NCBI GenBank assembly: GCA_031366005.1
Contig: JANLZB010000029.1
Coordinates: 24,393-88,392 of the forward strand
DNA: 64,000 nucleotides
Origin: Bacteroidota bacterium
GTDB lineage: Bacteria; Bacteroidota; Bacteroidia; AKYH767-A; OLB10
Direction: 5' to 3'
Position 1 is the stretch's first letter. Each line of letters opens with the position of its first letter. The notes under the pieces are model-generated. The model had not been told where the DNA came from. It saw only the letters and a program-made list of their open reading frames with translations, and made no database searches. The position numbers and the translations under genes are program-made. Positions 42,681 through 51,989 of the stretch are shown here, one piece after another.

Positions 42681-43987
42681 TTTCATTTATTAAAAAAAAC
42701 GCACAGTTTATTTTAATGTTAATGGTGTGGATTGTTGTAGGAATGTTTGTAAAGGAAACTGCGTTCGTGCTCGTTCCGCTCAGCTTTATGATATTAAAAA
42801 GTAAGAATCGTTACACTGAAATAATTCTTGCTTTTGCTTTAATTCTTTTTCTGTCAGATAACAGGCACCACATGCTTGCTGATATTGCAAACGAAACACG
42901 CGACATGTCAATCGTGCTGCTATCCCTGTTTGTTTTTTTTGATTCAAAACAATTTCCGGTAAAAAGCAGGTTGTTTATGCCTTTCATTCTTTTTCTCTCA
43001 ATGGCACTTTTTCTTGTCCTGAGAAATCCTAATCCGCTTAATTCATTTATGAGAACGGTTTCTTATGGATTGATGCTGTTAACTATTCCAAGTTATTTTA
43101 TCAAAGAATTAAATCGTGACGCAAAAGATTTTCTATGGAATATTGTTTGGTTTTGCGTGCTATTCCTCACCATTGGACTTATTATGATATTGCTGGTGAA
43201 TAATTGGGTATTTATTGGAGGACGTTACAACGGATTATTTGGAAATCCTAATGGTGTCGGAATCATGTGTACGCTTTTAACCATTCTCATTGCTGTTACC
43301 AGGCATCATTTCCCTGATATCTTTAGCCGCACAGAGTTATATTTTATTTATGCAGTCATTATAACCTCCATATTATTATCCAGTTCACGCAACTGTATTT
43401 TTTCCCTGATGATATTTTTATTCTTTATGCGTTTTTATAAAATATCTTATCTGTATGGTTTTATAATTGTGATAGTGGTTGCCGTTGTCTTTCAATTCAT
43501 AAATGAAAACCTGATTTTCATAATCGACTCCTTAGGGCTTGGTTCATATTTTCGGGTTGAACATTTAGATGACGGCTCAGGCAGATTGGTAGCATGGACA
43601 TTTGCGTGGGAGGAGATTCAAAGAAATTTTTACGCGGGAAGGGGTTTTGGTTTTGATAAATATTATTTTGAATTACACAAAGATTATCTATCATCATTGG
43701 GTCACCAGGGTGGTGTACACAACAGCTATCTCACCATTTGGATGAACACTGGTTTAATAGGTTTGATTCTTTTTATCATTGCTTACTTCCGTATTTTTTT
43801 CAAAGCTGCCACAATAAATTATCTTGCTATTCCCGCCATGTTTGCCATCATGTTTTCCATCAGTTTTGAATCATGGGCTGCATCCTCTTTAAGTCCGTTC
43901 ACTATAATTTTTCTTCTCATCATTACTTTATTGCAATATCAAAAAAATGAATCTCCAGCGCAAGAAGCTCTTGTTCCTTTACAATGA
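42677..43987 (+). CDS. wzy: O-antigen polymerase/ligase-family membrane protein (Wzy-like)
   Basis: About 10-12 transmembrane helices with a large periplasmic loop, located in a glycan cluster. ATGA overlap with the upstream glycosyltransferase gene. Confidence 0.6.
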   Translation: MISFIKKNAQFILMLMVWIVVGMFVKETAFVLVPLSFMILKSKNRYTEIILAFALILFLSDNRHHMLADIANETRDMSIVLLSLFVFFDSKQFPVKSRLFMPFILFLSMALFLVLRNPNPLNSFMRTVSYGLMLLTIPSYFIKELNRDAKDFLWNIVWFCVLFLTIGLIMILLVNNWVFIGGRYNGLFGNPNGVGIMCTLLTILIAVTRHHFPDIFSRTELYFIYAVIITSILLSSSRNCIFSLMIFLFFMRFYKISYLYGFIIVIVVAVVFQFINENLIFIIDSLGLGSYFRVEHLDDGSGRLVAWTFAWEEIQRNFYAGRGFGFDKYYFELHKDYLSSLGHQGGVHNSYLTIWMNTGLIGLILFIIAYFRIFFKAATINYLAIPAMFAIMFSISFESWAASSLSPFTIIFLLIITLLQYQKNESPAQEALVPLQ

Positions 43988-45014
43988 ACTGGCAGGTTAT
44001 TTCCTCGCATGTATTGATAAACTGTCAATGCTTCATGATGTGGATATTCATATCGTAAGATATCCGCTTAATCCGGTTGCACCATTTGAATTTAAGTTTA
44101 ACAATCATGTTAAATATTACGAACGAAAAGAGTATAACCGTACACAATTAATCGCATTAGCGAAAGAAATTAATCCTGATTTTATTTATACGGGAGGTTG
44201 GATGGATAAAGATTACATTGCAGTAAGCAAAAGTTTTAAAAATATTCCAATCGTTCTTACTTGCGATATGCCGTGGCTCGGTACTGCGAGACAAAAATTA
44301 GCATCCGTACTCGGACCATTATATCTGCCACGCATATTTACGCATTGCTGGGTACCCGGTGAGCCCAATGCTTTTTATGCAAGAAAACTTGGGTTCAAAG
44401 GCAATCGTTTATTAATGGGAGTGTATTCTGCCGATTATGATTTGTTTCATAATTATTATTTGCAGCATCGCGAAGCAAAGCAAAAACAATTTCCAAAACG
44501 GTTTATTTATGTAGGAAGATATGCAGAGTTAAAAGGTGTGCGCGAATTGTGGAAAGCATTTATGCAATTACAGAATGAGCAGCCCAATGAATGGGAATTA
44601 TGGTGTCTGGGTAAAGGAGATTTTGATGCTGAATTTCCTATAAACGAAAAGATTAAGAACTTTGGCTTTGTGCAACCCAAAGACTTAAATAAATTTATTG
44701 AGCAAACTGGCGTATTTATTTTTCCAACATACTATGAGCATTGGGGTGTAGTTGTTCATGAGTTTGCTGCTGCAGGTTTTCCGTTAGTGTGCAGTACTAC
44801 TACCAGCGCTGCAACCACTTTTCTCCGCGAAGCGTATAATGGTTATTATACAAAGCCAAGAGAGGTCTCGTCCATAGTAGATGCGATGAAAAAAATTATT
44901 GCAATGGATAACCAAGCGTTGTTTGAAATGGGAGAGCGCAGCGTTGAACTCTCCAGGCAAATTACTCCTGAAACATGGAGCAGTATCATTATGAATCTGG
45001 CGAATAAAAATTAA
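43947..45014 (+). CDS. Glycosyltransferase family 4
   Basis: FPTYYEHWGVVVHEFAAAGFPLVCS, the E-x7-E GT4 motif. Confidence 0.8.
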   Translation: MNLQRKKLLFLYNELAGYFLACIDKLSMLHDVDIHIVRYPLNPVAPFEFKFNNHVKYYERKEYNRTQLIALAKEINPDFIYTGGWMDKDYIAVSKSFKNIPIVLTCDMPWLGTARQKLASVLGPLYLPRIFTHCWVPGEPNAFYARKLGFKGNRLLMGVYSADYDLFHNYYLQHREAKQKQFPKRFIYVGRYAELKGVRELWKAFMQLQNEQPNEWELWCLGKGDFDAEFPINEKIKNFGFVQPKDLNKFIEQTGVFIFPTYYEHWGVVVHEFAAAGFPLVCSTTTSAATTFLREAYNGYYTKPREVSSIVDAMKKIIAMDNQALFEMGERSVELSRQITPETWSSIIMNLANKN

Positions 45015-45017
45015 AAC

Positions 45018-46889
45018 ATGTGTGGCATTTGCGGAATTTACGGATTGAATAAAGCGGAATCAACACCAATGGTTCAGAAGATGAATGATTGCATTGCACA
45101 TCGCGGACCTGATGATGATGGTTTTTATGTGGATGATAAAGTTGCACTCGGCCATCGCAGGCTTGCCATTATTGATTTAAGTCCGGCAGGTCATCAACCG
45201 ATGCAGGATGCTTCGCAGGATCTGGAATTAATTTTCAATGGTGAGATTTATAATTTTCTTGAGGTACAACCTCTAATTAATGATTACCCTTTTAAAACTA
45301 AAAGTGATTCGGAAGTTATACTTGCTTCTTATAAAAAATGGGGAGCGGATTGTGTGCATCAGTTCAATGGAATGTTTGCATTTGCAATATGGGATAAAAA
45401 GAAAGAAGAGTTGTTTATTGCACGCGATCGTTTAGGCATTAAGCCACTATATTATTATCAAAAAGATAATGTTTTTTTGTTTGCTTCTGAAGTTCGTGCA
45501 TTACTTGCTACAGGATTAGTTCCTCGTAAAATAAACCAACATGCACTGGCTGATTATTTCACTTATCAAACTGTGCATGCTCCGCAAACTTTAATTGAAG
45601 GTGTGCAGATGCTGATGCCCGGTCATCATATTATTATCAATAAAGGTGGAGTAAAAATTGAGCAATACTGGAGTCCGCAGAAAAACTTTACGGATGATTC
45701 AAAAAGCAAATCATACAATGAAGTTTGTGATGATGTGTATGAGTTATTGAAAGCATCTGTGAAAAGGAGATTGATAAGTGATGTTCCTTTCGGAGCATTT
45801 CTTTCAGGAGGAATTGATTCAAGCGCAGTGGTTGGATTGATGAGTGAAGCACAACAGCAACCTGTAAAAACATTTACCATCGTTTTTGGTGAGAAAGAAT
45901 TCAGCGAAGCTCAATATGCACGTGTTATTGCAGATAAATTTAAAACGGATCATCATGAGTTTCATCTTAGCCCTAAAGATTTTTTAGATGATTTGCCTCA
46001 TGCGTTAAATGCATTGGATCATCCAAGTGGGGACGGACCAAATTCTTTTATCGTATCACGCATCACACGTGAAAATGGAATCACAATGGCCTTATCAGGT
46101 TTAGGTGGTGATGAATTGTTTGCAGGCTATCCTGTGTTCAACCGTTATTTAAAATTAAAAGATAAAGAATGGTTGTGGAGAACACCCGAAGCAATCAGAA
46201 AACTGGCTGGTGTCGCACTCGCAACTGCCAAACCCGGTATCACATCCAATAAAGTAAAACAGTTTTTAGAATTGGAGAATGTAGATCTTGCAAATTCATT
46301 TCCTGTTTTTCGCCAGGTAGGAAATCCTTCTGCACTTGCAGCATTACTTAATCTGAAAAAATTACCTGCTGATCAGATTCAACGAATTTTAAAAACAGAG
46401 TTGAATGGAAAGGCATCATCGCTTCCGTTACTTAGCCAGGTAAGCATTGCGGAGATTACCACTTACATGCAAAATGTTTTGTTACGTGATACTGATCAGA
46501 TGAGTATGGCTGTTGCTTTGGAAGTGCGTGTTCCGTTTTTAGATTATAAGTTAGTGGAATATGTTTTAGGAATTCCCGATCAGTATAAGAAACCAATCTA
46601 TCCGAAAAAATTGTTGGTAGATAGTCTCAAAGGTTTGTTGCCCGATGAAATTGTTCATCGTAAAAAAATGGGGTTCGTGTTTCCCTGGGAAGTGTGGCTG
46701 AAAAACGAATTGCGTGATTTTTGTGAAGAGCGCATCAATCAATTATCAAAAAGAAATTTTATTAATGGAAAACATTTGCAAAATCAATGGATTAAATTTT
46801 TGCAGGGAGATAAGAACATTCGCTGGTTAGATATGTGGTTATGTGTAGTGCTTGAAGACTGGATGGAAAAAAACAGGGTTGTAGAATAA
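45018..46889 (+). CDS. asnB: Asparagine synthase (glutamine-hydrolysing)-family amidotransferase (WbpS-like, glycan-associated)
   Basis: N-terminal nucleophile MCGICG and the PP-loop SGGIDSS. 623 aa. Confidence 0.88.
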   Translation: MCGICGIYGLNKAESTPMVQKMNDCIAHRGPDDDGFYVDDKVALGHRRLAIIDLSPAGHQPMQDASQDLELIFNGEIYNFLEVQPLINDYPFKTKSDSEVILASYKKWGADCVHQFNGMFAFAIWDKKKEELFIARDRLGIKPLYYYQKDNVFLFASEVRALLATGLVPRKINQHALADYFTYQTVHAPQTLIEGVQMLMPGHHIIINKGGVKIEQYWSPQKNFTDDSKSKSYNEVCDDVYELLKASVKRRLISDVPFGAFLSGGIDSSAVVGLMSEAQQQPVKTFTIVFGEKEFSEAQYARVIADKFKTDHHEFHLSPKDFLDDLPHALNALDHPSGDGPNSFIVSRITRENGITMALSGLGGDELFAGYPVFNRYLKLKDKEWLWRTPEAIRKLAGVALATAKPGITSNKVKQFLELENVDLANSFPVFRQVGNPSALAALLNLKKLPADQIQRILKTELNGKASSLPLLSQVSIAEITTYMQNVLLRDTDQMSMAVALEVRVPFLDYKLVEYVLGIPDQYKKPIYPKKLLVDSLKGLLPDEIVHRKKMGFVFPWEVWLKNELRDFCEERINQLSKRNFINGKHLQNQWIKFLQGDKNIRWLDMWLCVVLEDWMEKNRVVE

Positions 46890-48046
46890 TGAACGAAAAA
46901 CGCAGAAAAAAAATTGTGGTATTAATTGACTGGTATCTTCCCGGATATAAGGCAGGTGGCCCGATTCAATCAGTTGCAAACATGGTTGTCAGGTTAAAAG
47001 AAGATTTTGAATTTGTAATCATTACCGGTGATACTGACGAAAGTGAAACCACTCCTTATACAACTGTAAAAAGCGATGCATGGAACACATTGTCTGATGG
47101 CACACGGGTTTATTATTTCTCAAAGAATGGCAGAAAATTCGGCACACTAAAAAAGATTATGCTGAAGGAACAGGCTGATGTATTTTATCTCAACAGTTTA
47201 TTCTCTGTTTTTTTTACTATGTATCCACTGATAATCAGGAAATATTTTATGCCTGCGCGAAAAATAATTTTGGCTTGCCGTGGCATGTTGGGTAAAGGAG
47301 CATTGGATATCAAATCAGGAAAGAAAAAATTGTTTTTATCTACTGCACGTTTAATAGGTTTATATAAAAATGTTAACTGGCATGCTTCTACAGAAATAGA
47401 AGCCAAAGAAATTGCATTGAATTTCGGAAAGCATCAAAAAGTTTCAGTCGCCACCAATCTCACTGCTTTAAAATCCTGTCCATCATTTGATAGGAAAAAA
47501 GAAGTTGGTAAAGTATGTTTTGTGTATTTATCACGAATCTCGCCAATCAAAAATCTGCTTGCAAGCATTCATGCAATTTTAAAATTACCCGACACTTATC
47601 AGGTGGAGTTTGATATCTATGGACCCATTGATGATATTTCCTATTGGGAAAAGTGCAAACTTGCAATTTCAAAAACCCCTCCGCACATTAAAATAAATTA
47701 TAAGGGCGCAATTGCTAACAGTGAGGCGATAAAAGTGCTGGAAAGCTATCATTTTGTTTTGTTGCAGACACACCATGAAAATTTCTGTCACTCTATAATT
47801 GAAAGCATGGCTGCAGGTTGTGTGACTGTTATTACTGACCAAACACCGTGGCGAAATCTTACAGCAGTTAAAGCGGGTTGGGATCTTCCGCTCAATGATG
47901 AACCTGCATTATTAGAAACATTAAAAATCTGTTGCGAAATGGATCAGGAAACTTTTAATGAATGGAGTAAAGCGGCTTTTAACTTTGCCGAAAAAGTAAT
48001 TAATAATCCCCAGCTGATAGAAGACAACAAAAGATTGTTTGCTTGA
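46889..48046 (+). CDS. Glycosyltransferase (GT4-like, GT-B fold)
   Basis: Capsule-locus-type glycosyltransferase with a C-terminal E-x7-E-like region (HHENFCHSIIESMAAGCVTVITD). ATGA overlap with asnB. Confidence 0.65.
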   Translation: MNEKRRKKIVVLIDWYLPGYKAGGPIQSVANMVVRLKEDFEFVIITGDTDESETTPYTTVKSDAWNTLSDGTRVYYFSKNGRKFGTLKKIMLKEQADVFYLNSLFSVFFTMYPLIIRKYFMPARKIILACRGMLGKGALDIKSGKKKLFLSTARLIGLYKNVNWHASTEIEAKEIALNFGKHQKVSVATNLTALKSCPSFDRKKEVGKVCFVYLSRISPIKNLLASIHAILKLPDTYQVEFDIYGPIDDISYWEKCKLAISKTPPHIKINYKGAIANSEAIKVLESYHFVLLQTHHENFCHSIIESMAAGCVTVITDQTPWRNLTAVKAGWDLPLNDEPALLETLKICCEMDQETFNEWSKAAFNFAEKVINNPQLIEDNKRLFA

Positions 48047-48128
48047 GGAACCTCTATCTTTACATACTGCAACTTTACAGACTGAAAGACGTATAAAAAA
48101 ACTGCCGCAGAAAAACGATTATTTACAC

Positions 48129-48902
48129 ATGAAAGTTTCCATAATTACAATTACTTACAACAGTGCACAAACAGTGGAAGATACCATTAAAACAGTGGTA
48201 TCTCAGGATTATCCTGATATAGAATATTTAATCATTGACGGTAAATCAAAGGACAGGACGCTTGAAATCGCAGCGAAATTTCAAAACAAAATTTCAAAAA
48301 TTGTTTCTGAAAAAGACAAAGGACTTTATGATGCACTAAACAAAGGCATTGCACATGCTACAGGTGATATAATCGGTATGTTGCACAGCGATGATTTATA
48401 TGCACACAATCAGGTAATCAGTAAAGTGGTTCAGAAATTTAAGGAAGATGCGAACCTTGAAGGGGTGTATGCAGATCTTGTTTTTGTAAATCGTAAAGAC
48501 ATAAATAAACCAATGCGGGTTTGGGAATCCGGTGAATATGAAGAAGGCGCTTTTTTAAAAGGGTGGATGCCTCCTCATCCTACTTTCTTTGTGAAAAAAG
48601 AAGTGTATGAAAAATTTGGAGGATTTAATACCGGACTTAAACTTTCAGCTGACTATGAGTTGATGCTGCGTTTGATTCATAAGAACGGAATTAAAATCGC
48701 TTATTTAAAAGATACCATTGTAAAAATGCGTATGGGTGGCGTGAGCAACGTGAGCATATTTGTTAAAATAAAAGCAAATCTTGAAGACAAGCTCGCATGG
48801 AAATTAAATGGAATTAATCCCGGTATTGCCACCACATTATTAAAGCCATTGAAAAAAATAAAACAGTATTTCAAACGGGCTTATGCGACAGTTTTTATGT
48901 AA
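48129..48902 (+). CDS. Glycosyltransferase family 2
   Basis: MKVSIITITYNSAQTVEDTI...YLIIDGKSKD, i.e. the GT-A DxD region. The start was moved to the internal Met at 48129. Confidence 0.85.
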   Translation: MKVSIITITYNSAQTVEDTIKTVVSQDYPDIEYLIIDGKSKDRTLEIAAKFQNKISKIVSEKDKGLYDALNKGIAHATGDIIGMLHSDDLYAHNQVISKVVQKFKEDANLEGVYADLVFVNRKDINKPMRVWESGEYEEGAFLKGWMPPHPTFFVKKEVYEKFGGFNTGLKLSADYELMLRLIHKNGIKIAYLKDTIVKMRMGGVSNVSIFVKIKANLEDKLAWKLNGINPGIATTLLKPLKKIKQYFKRAYATVFM

Positions 48903-48963
48903 AGGATTAATTTTATCGTTTTGCAAATTTTTATCTTAAGATTTAAAAATTCCTATTAATAAA

Positions 48964-49566
48964 ATGAGTGACCAACAGGCAAAAGTTGATCTTTCCCGTT
49001 TCAATTCAGCTGAATTTGATATTGGTGCTTCATGGTTTAAATATGGTATATGGCACTTGTGCAGCATTCTGTTTTTCAACAGCCCGTTTTGTCCTTCAAG
49101 TAAAATACGCGCAACAATACTTCGCTGGTTCGGTGCTAAGGTTGGCAATGGTTTGGTAATGAGTAAGCCGAATGTTAACATTAAATTTCCGTGGCGGTTA
49201 ACCATCGGCAATCATGTGTGGATAGGAGAAAAAGCCTGGATATATAACATTGATCAGGTAAATATTGGTGATAATGTAAATATTGCACAAGGTGCTTTGC
49301 TTTTAACCGGTAATCACAATTATAAGAGTGTGGAGTTTGAAACCATAACAGGTCCGATAATAATTGAAGATGGTGTTTTCATTGGAGCACAATCTATCGT
49401 TTGCCCGGGTGTTACCTGCAAATCACACAGTATTCTCGGTGCAGGTTCTGTTGCCACGCATAATCTTGAACCTTATAAAATTTATATGGGTGTACCTGCA
49501 GTTTATAAAAAAGACCGGGTAGTGATGGAGCGGAATCAGTTAGAGAAGAAGAATGTATCTGTATAA
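48964..49566 (+). CDS. Hexapeptide-repeat (LbH) sugar O-acetyltransferase (WcaF/colanic-acid acetyltransferase-like)
   Basis: Left-handed beta-helix hexapeptide repeats (IGNHVWIGEKAWI, IGDNVNIAQGALL, IEDGVFIGAQSIV). The last ~20 codons appear to have been replaced by an insertion. Confidence 0.8.
   Translation: MSDQQAKVDLSRFNSAEFDIGASWFKYGIWHLCSILFFNSPFCPSSKIRATILRWFGAKVGNGLVMSKPNVNIKFPWRLTIGNHVWIGEKAWIYNIDQVNIGDNVNIAQGALLLTGNHNYKSVEFETITGPIIIEDGVFIGAQSIVCPGVTCKSHSILGAGSVATHNLEPYKIYMGVPAVYKKDRVVMERNQLEKKNVSV
49505..49540. repeat. Direct repeat, copy 1 (within the 3' end of the acetyltransferase gene)
   Basis: tataaaaaagaccgggtagtgatggagcggaatcag. It recurs at 50274-50314 with 1 substitution and 1 indel. 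Confidence 0.85.
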
Positions 49567-49602
49567 ATAATTCTAATAGCGAAATCATATACTTAAATTT
49601 GC

Positions 49603-49896
49603 ATGATGCATTCGCACACTGAAATAGAAAATAAATTACGATTGCTGAAACCTGTTTTAACTGAAACCTATTCAGTAAAAAATATCGGGTATTTTGGCTC
49701 TTATGCTGACCAAAATCAAAATCAACAAAGTGATCTTGACATCCTTGTAGAATTTACCAAACCTGTTGGATGGAATTTTTTTGCTCTGGAAAAATATCTT
49801 GAAGAACAATTTGGTTTAAAGGTGGATTTAGTTACACCCAATGCTCTCAAAGAACAGCTGAAAGAAAGAATATTAAATCAAGTCAGGTTTGTGTGA
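49603..49896 (+). CDS. MntA-type nucleotidyltransferase antitoxin
   Basis: GSYADQNQNQQSDLDILVEF, the minimal nucleotidyltransferase GS-x(n)-D-x-D motif. Confidence 0.8.
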   Translation: MMHSHTEIENKLRLLKPVLTETYSVKNIGYFGSYADQNQNQQSDLDILVEFTKPVGWNFFALEKYLEEQFGLKVDLVTPNALKEQLKERILNQVRFV

Positions 49897-50252
49897 AAAA
49901 GGACGAAAGAAGCTATTTGCTTTTTCTTGAAGACATTCTTCTTTCGATGAATCGGATTGAAGAATATGTGATAGGACTTGACCTTCAGCATTTCAAATGG
50001 GATTATAAAACAGTAGATGCAGTAATACGCAATTTTGAAATTATCGGAGAAGCGTCAAAAAATCTTCCGGATGAATTCAAGTTAAAATACCCGGCTCTTC
50101 CCTGGGAAGAGATGTATCGTTTACGTAACAGAATATCACATGAATACTTTGGAATTGATTACGAGATAATTTGGGATATTGCTAATAATTATATTCCTGT
50201 TAACAGAAAAGAAATAGAAATGATATTAAATAATTTGAAAAACACGAATTAG
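49893..50252 (+). CDS. HepT-type (DUF86) HEPN toxin
   Basis: R-x4-HEY motif (RNRISHEYFGID). 4-nt overlap with the MntA gene. Confidence 0.8.
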   Translation: MKKDERSYLLFLEDILLSMNRIEEYVIGLDLQHFKWDYKTVDAVIRNFEIIGEASKNLPDEFKLKYPALPWEEMYRLRNRISHEYFGIDYEIIWDIANNYIPVNRKEIEMILNNLKNTN

Positions 50253-50273
50253 ATTTTCTTAATGGATACAGCA

Positions 50274-50314
50274 CTTTATAAAAAAGACCGGGTAGTGATG
50301 GAGCCGAATTCAGC
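50274..50314. repeat. Direct repeat, copy 2 (a relic of the acetyltransferase 3' end, downstream of the toxin-antitoxin cassette)
   Basis: tttataaaaaagaccgggtagtgatggagccgaattcag. In frame it encodes YKKDRVVMEPNSAIKNPVTNQIR*, which parallels the ...YKKDRVVMERNQLEKKNVSV* end of the current acetyltransferase. Confidence 0.85.
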
Positions 50315-50479
50315 AATAAAAAATCCTGTGACTAATCAAATCAGATAAGCATTGTTTTTAACCATTTATGCAATGCCATTTTAATTTTAAATTAATTTTA
50401 AAGAACACACAACTTTATTTAAACTTCCCTCGTAAAAAAACGAATGTTAGCTTTGCGCTTTAATTATCAGGATAAATAA

Positions 50480-51076
50480 ATGCAGTCAACCAATATTGTA
50501 AAACAGGATTACAAGATCAGTAAGAAGGATCGCGTTCAGCTATTGAATCAGCGTCCGGTTATTATCTGGCTTACTGGTTTGAGTGGTTCAGGCAAATCAA
50601 CAATTGCTGATCGTTTGGAACAGGAATTGTTTCAGAAAGGATATAAAACTTATTTACTGGATGGCGACAACATTCGCCATGGTTTGAATAAAAATATTGA
50701 TTTTACTGATGATGGAAGAAAAGAAAACATCAGGCGTATAGGCGAAGTGGCAAAGCTGTTTGTGGATGCTGGCATCATTGTTATTACCGCATTTATCTCT
50801 CCCTTTATTGAGGATAGAAACTCAGTGCGTGCATTGGTTGAAAAAAACGAATTTATTGAAGTGTTTGTAGAGTGTCCCATTGAAGTTTGCGAAAGCCGCG
50901 ATGTGAAAGGCTTATATCAGAAAGCACGCAAAGGTGAAATTCCTAATTTTACAGGCATTAGCTCAGCTTTTGAGACTCCATTAAACCCGGAAATAATTGT
51001 GCATACTGCACAGCATACTTTAGAAAATTGTGTGAACCAAATTTTAGATTTTACGTTAAACAGAATTAAAAAATAA
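50480..51076 (+). CDS. cysC: Adenylyl-sulfate (APS) kinase
   Basis: P-loop IWLTGLSGSGKSTIA. The 198-aa length and motifs are typical of CysC. Confidence 0.9.
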   Translation: MQSTNIVKQDYKISKKDRVQLLNQRPVIIWLTGLSGSGKSTIADRLEQELFQKGYKTYLLDGDNIRHGLNKNIDFTDDGRKENIRRIGEVAKLFVDAGIIVITAFISPFIEDRNSVRALVEKNEFIEVFVECPIEVCESRDVKGLYQKARKGEIPNFTGISSAFETPLNPEIIVHTAQHTLENCVNQILDFTLNRIKK

Positions 51077-51083
51077 ATAATAC

Positions 51084-51989
51084 ATGATTCTTTATCATTT
51101 AAATCATTTAAGAGAGTTAGAAGCAGAAGCCATTTACATCATTCGCGAAACAGCTTCTCAATTTGATCGCCCAGCATTATTATTTTCAGGTGGAAAAGAT
51201 TCCATCGTGATGACACATCTTGCACAAAAAGCATTTTATCCGGCACGCATTCCCTTTCCTTTGGTGCACGTTGATACAGGACATAACTTTCCTGAAACAA
51301 TAACTTTCCGTGATGAGATGGTGGAAAGAATTGGCGCGCAATTAATAGTGCGATATGTTCAGGATTCAATTGATAAAGGGCGTGCTAAAGAAGAGAAAGG
51401 TCCGAATGCAAGTCGTAATGTATTGCAGACAGTCACTTTGTTAGATGCATTGGAAGAATTAAAAATTGATGCTGCATTAGGCGGTGCCCGCAGGGATGAA
51501 GAAAAGGCTCGTGCTAAAGAACGTTTCTTTTCACATCGTGATGACTTCGGCCAGTGGGATCCAAAAAATCAGCGCCCTGAATTATGGAATTTATTAAACG
51601 GAAGAAAAAATGTTGGTGAACACTTCCGTGTGTTTCCGCTCAGCAACTGGACAGAAATGGATGTGTGGCAATACATTCAATTAGAGAAATTAGAAATACC
51701 AACTATTTATTTCTCTCACGTTCGTGATATTGTGGAGCGTGATGGAATGTTGTTGTATGCTTCTGAATTTATTACAATACGACCAAATGAAGAAGTACAA
51801 AAACGTGTTGTTCGTTACCGCACCGTTGGTGACATGACTTGCACCGGTGCAGTAGCATCTCCTGCAAGCACACTGGATGAAATTATTGATGAAGTGGCAA
51901 CAAGCAGAACTACAGAACGTGGTACACGTGCAGATGATAAGCGAAGCGAGAGTGCAATGGAAGACAGAAAAAAAGCAGGATACTTTTAA
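51084..51989 (+). CDS. cysD: Sulfate adenylyltransferase subunit 2
   Basis: PAPS-reductase-like PP-loop (LLFSGGKDS) and a CysD-specific C-terminal region. Confidence 0.9.
   Translation: MILYHLNHLRELEAEAIYIIRETASQFDRPALLFSGGKDSIVMTHLAQKAFYPARIPFPLVHVDTGHNFPETITFRDEMVERIGAQLIVRYVQDSIDKGRAKEEKGPNASRNVLQTVTLLDALEELKIDAALGGARRDEEKARAKERFFSHRDDFGQWDPKNQRPELWNLLNGRKNVGEHFRVFPLSNWTEMDVWQYIQLEKLEIPTIYFSHVRDIVERDGMLLYASEFITIRPNEEVQKRVVRYRTVGDMTCTGAVASPASTLDEIIDEVATSRTTERGTRADDKRSESAMEDRKKAGYF

Follow-up and report, generated by a model that had tools for sequence, protein, structure and literature searches.

We found that a 731-nt toxin-antitoxin (TA) cassette of the MntA/HepT type is inserted in the 3' end of an acetyltransferase gene in a 64,000-nucleotide stretch of Bacteroidota DNA (contig JANLZB010000029.1, positions 24,393 to 88,392; this whole stretch is called the window here), and that about 40 nt of the target sequence are duplicated around it. 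The target gene (48964..49566, + strand, as are all features given below) encodes a hexapeptide-repeat acetyltransferase of the WcaF family with 200 aa (NCBIfam NF007797, 203.8 bits at a cut-off of 192; Pfam Hexapep). Behind the insert follows cysC, the gene for adenylylsulfate (APS) kinase.

The insert is bounded by a direct repeat. Its two copies match without gaps over 39 nt (49498-49536 and 50271-50309), with 37 of the 39 positions identical, and when one 1-nt indel is allowed the repeat reaches 49539 and 50313, giving 42-43 nt. Both copies contain the exact 30-mer TTTATAAAAAAGACCGGGTAGTGATGGAGC (at 49502 and 50275), which has no third site in the window even with 3 mismatches allowed, and the repeat match was absent from 100 of 100 shuffles. 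The repeat that an earlier note on this DNA had described around the MntA/HepT pair is hence real and beyond chance, although the starts given there, 49505 and 50274, were a few bases too narrow and the true ones are 49498 and 50271. Both copies encode the peptide YKKDRVVME. The upstream copy, which is the target sequence (49498..49539), lies within the acetyltransferase coding sequence and matches the single copy of the related locus L003 (6535-6576) at 41 of 42 positions; the downstream copy (50271..50313) was placed by the direct-repeat alignment and by blastn against L003. In total, the repeat sequence is present twice in the window and once in each related locus. Between the copies lies the inserted segment (49540..50270), which has a GC content of 31.5%, whereas the acetyltransferase gene has 39.1% and cysC 37.0%.

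Relatives of the locus were collected by a protein search with the acetyltransferase and by gene-context look-ups. Two further assemblies (L001 and L002) have the same sequence as the window. In four other loci, L003 (95% protein identity), L004 (82%), L006 (85%) and L098 (86%), the acetyltransferase gene is directly followed by cysC, and both the TA pair and the inserted segment are missing. The insertion that the earlier note had proposed consequently has its empty sites, and in L003 the repeat is a single 42-nt stretch. Blastn aligns L003 2-6576 with window 42959-49539 and L003 6535-8252 with window 50271-51988, which sets the break points at 49539 and 50271. The 42 nt of L003 between 6535 and 6576 align with both window copies, and this is the signature of an insertion with target duplication. 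The borders are sharp, with a nucleotide identity to L003 of 93-100% up to each break point, and the gene neighbourhood of the window is that of the empty relatives. Because all four relatives, at 82-95% protein identity, are empty, an insertion in the lineage of the window is the most economical reading.

The event exchanged the end of the host gene. The gene body and the YKKDRVVME stretch are native, being 93-100% identical to L003 up to 49539. The present tail, LEKKNVSV* (stop codon at 49564-49566), is read from the 27 nt with which the insert begins. Behind the cassette we find an orphan fragment (50271..50348; ...LYKKDRVVMEPNSAIKNPVTNQIR*), which is colinear with the L003 tail and the adjoining intergenic DNA at 92-95% identity and homologous to the L006 tail (register-anchored test, p = 0.0017). 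This identifies the downstream copy as the displaced native 3' end, in agreement with the earlier note. The note had also argued that this copy runs in frame to its own stop codon. The frame is indeed open through the TAA at 50346-50348, giving ...PNSAIKNPVTNQIR*, but the argument is weaker than it appears: L003 lacks one T and stops earlier (ERNQQQKIL*), and because the native tail of the lineage is variable, the in-frame stop is not strong alone. Comparison of L003:6560-6600 with window 50297-50348 places this extra T in the orphan copy, where it lets the frame reach the stop position common to L006 (TNQIR* vs SNQFK*). The C-terminal tail of this acetyltransferase family is very variable and frameshift-tolerant; the C-termini of the relatives read ER[DS]ELE[TK][KQ]K....

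The left end of the insert, which forms the new gene tail (49540..49592), was compared with the L006 tail. Register-anchored alignment of 49540-49581 with that tail gives a score of 25, while shuffles score -3.4 +/- 6.1 and 0 of 3000 reach 25. In this test the similarity equals the strength of true orthologous tail pairs. The new tail starts with the family-typical L-E-K-K codons in the correct register. In addition, positions 49540-49592 are not conserved among other MntA/HepT cassettes, whose nucleotide similarity to the window covers only 49618-50242. These comparisons suggest that the new tail is the acetyltransferase tail of another lineage, carried in by the insert. That the gene end was rebuilt, as had been noted before, holds; the rebuilding was probably no chance read-through into the cassette, since the new end resembles an imported acetyltransferase tail. 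The right end of the insert is formed by the 18 nt between the hepT stop codon and the repeat (50253..50270; ATTTTCTTAATGGATACA). At this joint microhomology is limited to at most 3 nt (GCA), and a register comparison by eye of these 18 nt with the acetyltransferase gene gave about 10/22 matches in AT-rich sequence, which is not convincing as homology.

The cargo consists of two co-oriented genes with the minimal nucleotidyltransferase (MNT) gene first. The antitoxin gene mntA (49603..49896) encodes 97 aa (Pfam PF01909, NTP_transf_2, E = 1.9e-12) with a GS...DLD nucleotidyltransferase motif that reads GSYADQNQNQQSDLD in the translation, and MntA matches PDB 1WOT at 4e-5. The toxin gene hepT (49893..50252) has a GTG start and encodes a HEPN RNase of 119 aa (Pfam PF01934, HepT-like, 90 bits) with the motif RNRISHEY (RX4HXY), of which R78, H83 and Y85 are invariant in 25 homologues. 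The mntA stop and the hepT start share a 4-nt GTGA overlap. The list of open reading frames and the Pfam assignments bear out what had been read from the letters before: one MNT and one HepT gene with a 4-nt overlap, alone between the repeats and without a recombinase. The NCBIfam models MntA_antitoxin and HepT_toxin (NF047752 and NF047751) are matched with 46.3 and 40.3 bits, both under the cut-off of 60, so that the pair represents a distant subfamily, which is a member at the Pfam level and not at the equivalog level. A search with the single HepT sequence against solved structures gave no match; a profile built from the homologues finds the Shewanella HepT (5YEP, 6M6U) with the RX4HXY motif aligned. 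We regard the pair as an intact-looking type VII TA operon, for which family membership would predict toxicity of HepT and neutralisation by MntA.

Transcription of the cassette may be independent of the host gene. The -7 promoter box of Bacteroidota has the consensus TAnnTTTG. A sequence that fits it, TAAATTTG (49594..49601), stands 1 nt before the mntA ATG. This suggests that the cassette has its own predicted promoter and a leaderless or near-leaderless transcript, and that the related operons are transcribed leaderless. In most of the related loci displayed, a TAnnTTTG box or a one-mismatch variant is seen 3-5 nt before the mntA ATG. A scan for sigma-70 promoters and terminators, which does not model Bacteroidota promoters, gave nothing over shuffle expectation.

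To place the locus within its family, we surveyed 80 loci of HepT relatives from species-representative genomes (L008-L087) and 80 from metagenome contigs (L099-L178). The 600 nt upstream of mntA were aligned to the 600 nt downstream of hepT, and windows of the same geometry shifted along the loci served as controls. Significant flanking direct repeats were found at 17 of 76 loci from the genomes (controls 2/369; Fisher p 2e-12) and at 15 of 64 loci from the metagenome contigs (controls 3/193; Fisher p 1e-7). Pooled, about 23% of the 140 related MntA/HepT loci are flanked by repeats vs about 1% of the controls. The repeat-flanked unit typically measures 0.7-0.9 kb and the flanking repeats 31-372 nt. 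Distances of 0-21 nt from the hepT stop to the start of the downstream repeat are frequent, as are distances of 40-130 nt from the end of the upstream repeat to mntA.

The enrichment is real but mixed in origin, and it does not represent a single phenomenon. One class consists of duplicated pieces of neighbouring genes: a 372-nt duplicate of the gmd 5' end in L076 (differences 15/7/38 by codon position), a duplicated guaB 3' end in L113 (6 synonymous changes, stop codon included, vs 1 non-synonymous) and a duplicated helicase fragment in L051 (5/2/11 by codon position). Such mostly synonymous differences indicate that the copies diverged as working genes in different genomes. The three loci parallel the window and support a homology-guided arrival together with a piece of the donor's neighbour gene. 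A second class has repeat families with 3-6 copies per locus at a spacing of about 0.8-2.5 kb, mostly 0.8-1.3 kb (L015, L152, L159, L120 and L131), and where open reading frames were listed, different small genes lie between the copies. In L015 the copies are at 2520, 3790, 4548, 5374, 6866 and 9334, and in L152 at 606, 1630, 2664 and 3669. One repeat family is common to L131, L152 and L159 and another to L041 and L141. The multi-copy loci look like cassette arrays, and no canonical integron attC motif was found in them. The remaining class is formed by two-copy intergenic repeats. An interpretation of all flanking repeats as target duplications was rejected, as at least 6 loci carry repeat families at 3 or more copies per locus.

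We also rejected the guaB locus L113 as a second clean pair of filled and empty sites, because it is a multi-allelic hotspot. The region past guaB (L113, L179-L186; a Mucilaginibacter-like population) varies among strains with 98-100% identical GuaB. In L113 itself, the guaB 3' end recurs as a foreign copy behind MntA/HepT; in L184, MntA/HepT stands after guaB without repeats and is followed by a TIR-domain gene; and L179 has a DUF6364-PIN pair plus other small genes. In the variant L180 (4530-6641), the place of hepT behind an MntA-like gene is taken by a gene for a 557-aa reverse transcriptase (RVT_1). The similarity of L180 to L113 ends about 45 nt into hepT, and a retroelement may have disrupted the toxin gene or taken its place.

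For the insertion in the window, we consider it probable that the cassette entered from a related donor by homology-anchored recombination, that a second, non-homologous joint closed the event, and that addiction then retained the product. The source of the cassette would have been a related genome that had it directly behind its own acetyltransferase gene, one expected to end with ...ERNQLEKKNVSV*, and the incoming DNA would hence have carried a foreign copy of the acetyltransferase 3' end. At one junction, donor and recipient would have paired by homology over the YKKDRVVME codons, where the gene end is most conserved, and this would explain why the gene now has a donor-type tail. The other junction, 18 nt after the hepT stop, would be non-homologous. 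The route could have been one-sided recombination, a template switch or a single crossover that involved a circularised fragment, and the sequence fits each of the three. A structure flanked by repeats would normally be lost again by recombination between them; here it would be kept since loss of the antitoxin would free the HepT RNase. The further idea of the earlier note, that addiction to the pair stabilises the glycan/PAPS locus, is speculative. As the result of the event, the upstream copy remains in the gene, and the downstream copy together with the old tail is an orphan remnant.

Several points weigh against this entry from a related donor. The protein search brought up no donor with an acetyltransferase-MntA/HepT gene order, and among about 170 fetched TA loci there was none with an acetyltransferase gene or fragment near the TA pair. 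The closest HepT other than that of the window itself shows 75-76% identity and lies in another context. If the donor were as distant as L006, a 30-mer that is perfectly identical in donor and recipient would be unexpected. The argument for a donor tail rests on about 40 AT-rich nucleotides and is significant against the L006 lineage only: register-anchored alignments of the new tail to the tails of L097, L004 and L187 were not significant, and neither were free local alignments to the acetyltransferase tails (p = 0.28-0.60). With significance limited to L006, we rate the similarity as moderate evidence. Both repeat copies furthermore share an A where L003 has G, which fits a duplication of recipient sequence in situ as well as a crossover. 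Finally, the attP site of an integrative element can mimic a gene end, so that the new tail is also compatible with a recombinase acting in trans.

Among the HepT relatives, the closest ones (75-76%; L088-L096) all share the context carB, DUF4834, mntA, hepT, yfhO and then a glycosyltransferase gene. In some of them hepT overlaps the start of yfhO, and no flanking repeats are seen there. This pair looks like a long-resident copy in another glycan-related neighbourhood.

In a rather unlikely alternative, the long target duplication arose independently of homology. Here, widely staggered breaks with fill-in or a replicative template switch would have inserted foreign DNA and copied about 40 nt of recipient sequence on either side of it, and the resemblance of the new tail to acetyltransferase tails would be chance. 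Near-identical copies with a common A are what one expects if both were copied from the recipient, the tail similarity lacks significance by free local alignment and against three of the four other lineages, and insertions of this kind by restriction-modification (RM) systems have no known homology requirement (PMC2853133). On the other hand, the anchored similarity to the L006 tail exceeds 3000 of 3000 shuffles, with the L-E-K-K codons in register, and the duplicated gene ends of the parallel loci differ mainly synonymously, which is unexpected for a duplication in situ followed by decay.

A site-specific integration would make the repeats attL and attR. A small circular cassette with an attachment site that mimics the acetyltransferase 3' end would have been integrated by a tyrosine or serine recombinase encoded elsewhere, implying a 773-bp circle (P-O-P') with the junction ...GGATACAGCAC-repeat-TTAGAGAAG.... 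The geometry is classical, with a direct repeat at the 3' end of a gene whose end is restored by element-borne sequence, and the 30-nt core is perfectly identical. Since some related cassettes lie between copies of a repeat family at 3-6 copies per locus, some site-specific cassette system does seem to operate elsewhere in the family. For the window itself we nevertheless judge this course to be unlikely. The 731-nt insert brings no recombinase, and neither an integrase nor a transposase gene occurs in the insert or among the neighbouring genes, which are the same as in the empty relatives. The four relatives show no other element at the site. The flanking repeats differ in sequence between most related loci, although a few loci share a family, and their lengths lie between 31 and 372 nt. 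The ends of the insert showed no terminal inverted repeats, and the canonical attC motif pair (RYYYAAC...GTTRRRY) is absent from the repeats of 20 related loci. In the window no attC was found either, and the 18 nt that separate the hepT stop from the repeat are all the space there is. An integron gene cassette was rejected on the same two grounds, the missing motif pair in the 20 related loci and the lack of room in the window. A transposon, insertion sequence or miniature inverted-repeat element was rejected because of the missing terminal inverted repeats and a duplication that measures 40 nt here and 31-372 nt elsewhere. An Rfam search of 48800-50700 gave sub-threshold noise only, and the window contains no tRNA genes.

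That the cassette is ancestral to the clade and was lost from the empty relatives by recombination between the repeats is, in our judgement, very improbable. L003 does join variants of the upstream copy (the G, no extra T) to a tail of the downstream type, which excision through the repeat could yield, and such an excision would also account for the shorter, frame-shifted L003 tail ERNQQQKIL*. However, the four empty relatives at 82-95% protein identity would require repeated precise losses, the loss of an active TA pair should be counter-selected, and the insert has a lower GC content than its surroundings. Even if true, an ancestral cassette would alter the timing of the insertion only and not its nature. 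An assembly artefact, in which the assembler joined up strain variants, or a small separate molecule with the 30-mer in common, deserves next to no credence: every source is a short-read metagenome assembly and a 30-nt exact repeat is near common k-mer sizes, but the structure recurs in two Logan contigs, which are independent and stem from different runs, as well as in an NCBI contig of 90 kb with identical proteins, the junction of hepT, 18-nt spacer and repeat has to be in the reads, and a 773-bp replicon without a replication gene is implausible.

Downstream of the insertion, cysC (50480..51076; Pfam PF01583, E = 2e-68) stands in synteny with L003, L004, L006 and L098. Its upstream intergenic region is intact, including the conserved TAGCTTTG. 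The block ACGAATGTTAGCTTTG(C/T)GCTTTAATT (window 50440-50460), located 5' of cysC, is conserved in the window, L003, L004 and L006, and TAGCTTTG within it is a match to the -7 box. With this conserved block in place, cysC probably keeps its own predicted promoter despite the insertion.

The transfer of chromosomal TA pairs without a transposon, phage or integron is poorly understood. The locus described here is a clean natural example: the filled site can be set against four empty ones, the break points are exact, the old gene end is displaced and its replacement seems to derive from the donor. It shows that a host enzyme can receive a new C-terminus through such an insertion and yet not be destroyed. 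Since the cassette itself is of a well-known family, the practical consequences are modest.

When compared with known systems, the cargo resembles the type VII MntA/HepT pair of Shewanella oneidensis (SO_3165/SO_3166; PDB 5YEP, 6M6U) in the MNT-HEPN order, the overlap and the GSX10DXD-type and RX4HXY motifs; unlike that pair it is a distant one, for which the solved HepT is reached by profile only. With integrative elements that target the 3' ends of tRNA and some protein genes, the insertion shares a direct repeat that bounds the insert, an end restored from the element side and an original end displaced downstream. It differs from them in having no integrase, an insert of 0.73 kb and no core that is common to most related cassettes. 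Integron cassettes, among which TA cassettes are common in chromosomal arrays, are likewise very compact with tight borders, and some related loci are array-like. In contrast to them, the window has no attC, no array and no integrase, and the repeat consists of host coding sequence, of which relatives have one copy. In transformable bacteria, homology-facilitated illegitimate recombination and Campbell-type insertion-duplication are processes in which a single crossover with a circle duplicates the homologous segment. The proposed combination of one homologous and one non-homologous junction in the window resembles them. Classical homology-facilitated events usually delete recipient DNA, whereas in the window recipient DNA is duplicated.

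The closest parallel to the insertion signature comes from RM systems, for which 'insertion with long target duplication' was defined (Nobusato et al. 2000, cited in Furuta, Abe & Kobayashi 2010, PMC2853133). These insertions have direct repeats >30 bp that are single-copy at the empty site, and no mobility genes (PMC2853133). The repeats often span the start or stop codon of a neighbour, the mechanism is unknown, and the authors suggested that a trait shared by restriction systems, for instance double-strand breakage, is responsible (PMC2853133). The window likewise shows a compact addiction-type module without a mobility gene, repeats >30 bp of which the empty site in a relative has one copy, a repeat across the stop-codon region of a neighbour gene that stays usable, and an insert with a GC content unlike that of the host. 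Measured by the criteria of Furuta et al. 2010, we find an empty site, a duplication >30 bp, an insert <20 kb with a complete module and no other mobile-element genes. The cargo is a TA pair and not an RM system, and we therefore file the locus as working like the RM insertion class and not as a described member of it. Two differences are instructive. The cargo encodes an RNase toxin and a nucleotidyltransferase antitoxin, so that double-strand breakage driven by the cargo cannot apply, and any mechanism shared with RM systems would have to work without the cargo cleaving DNA. Moreover, the new tail in the window resembles a foreign copy of the target-gene end, unlike in RM insertions, which points to a homology-guided entry. 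For TA pairs, there are isolated reports of pairs between direct repeats, for example in Microcystis (PMC7935541), and in the literature that we searched, an incomplete collection, we found no description of an insertion mode with long target duplication.

The locus thereby links TA mobility to an insertion signature that has so far been documented for RM systems. One may tentatively speculate, and we regard this as possible but doubtful, that the MntA/HepT modules of Bacteroidota are recombinase-free mobile addiction modules, which spread via one-sided, homology-anchored recombination at the conserved ends of host genes. If so, they would leave long, variable and often foreign target duplications that addiction protects from collapse, and there would be a concrete answer to how chromosomal TA loci move without a carrier. 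The RM insertion phenomenon would then extend to RNase toxins, without dependence on DNA cleavage by the cargo. The locus argues that the signature shared with the RM systems stems from host recombination together with addiction, and not from DNA cutting by the cargo.

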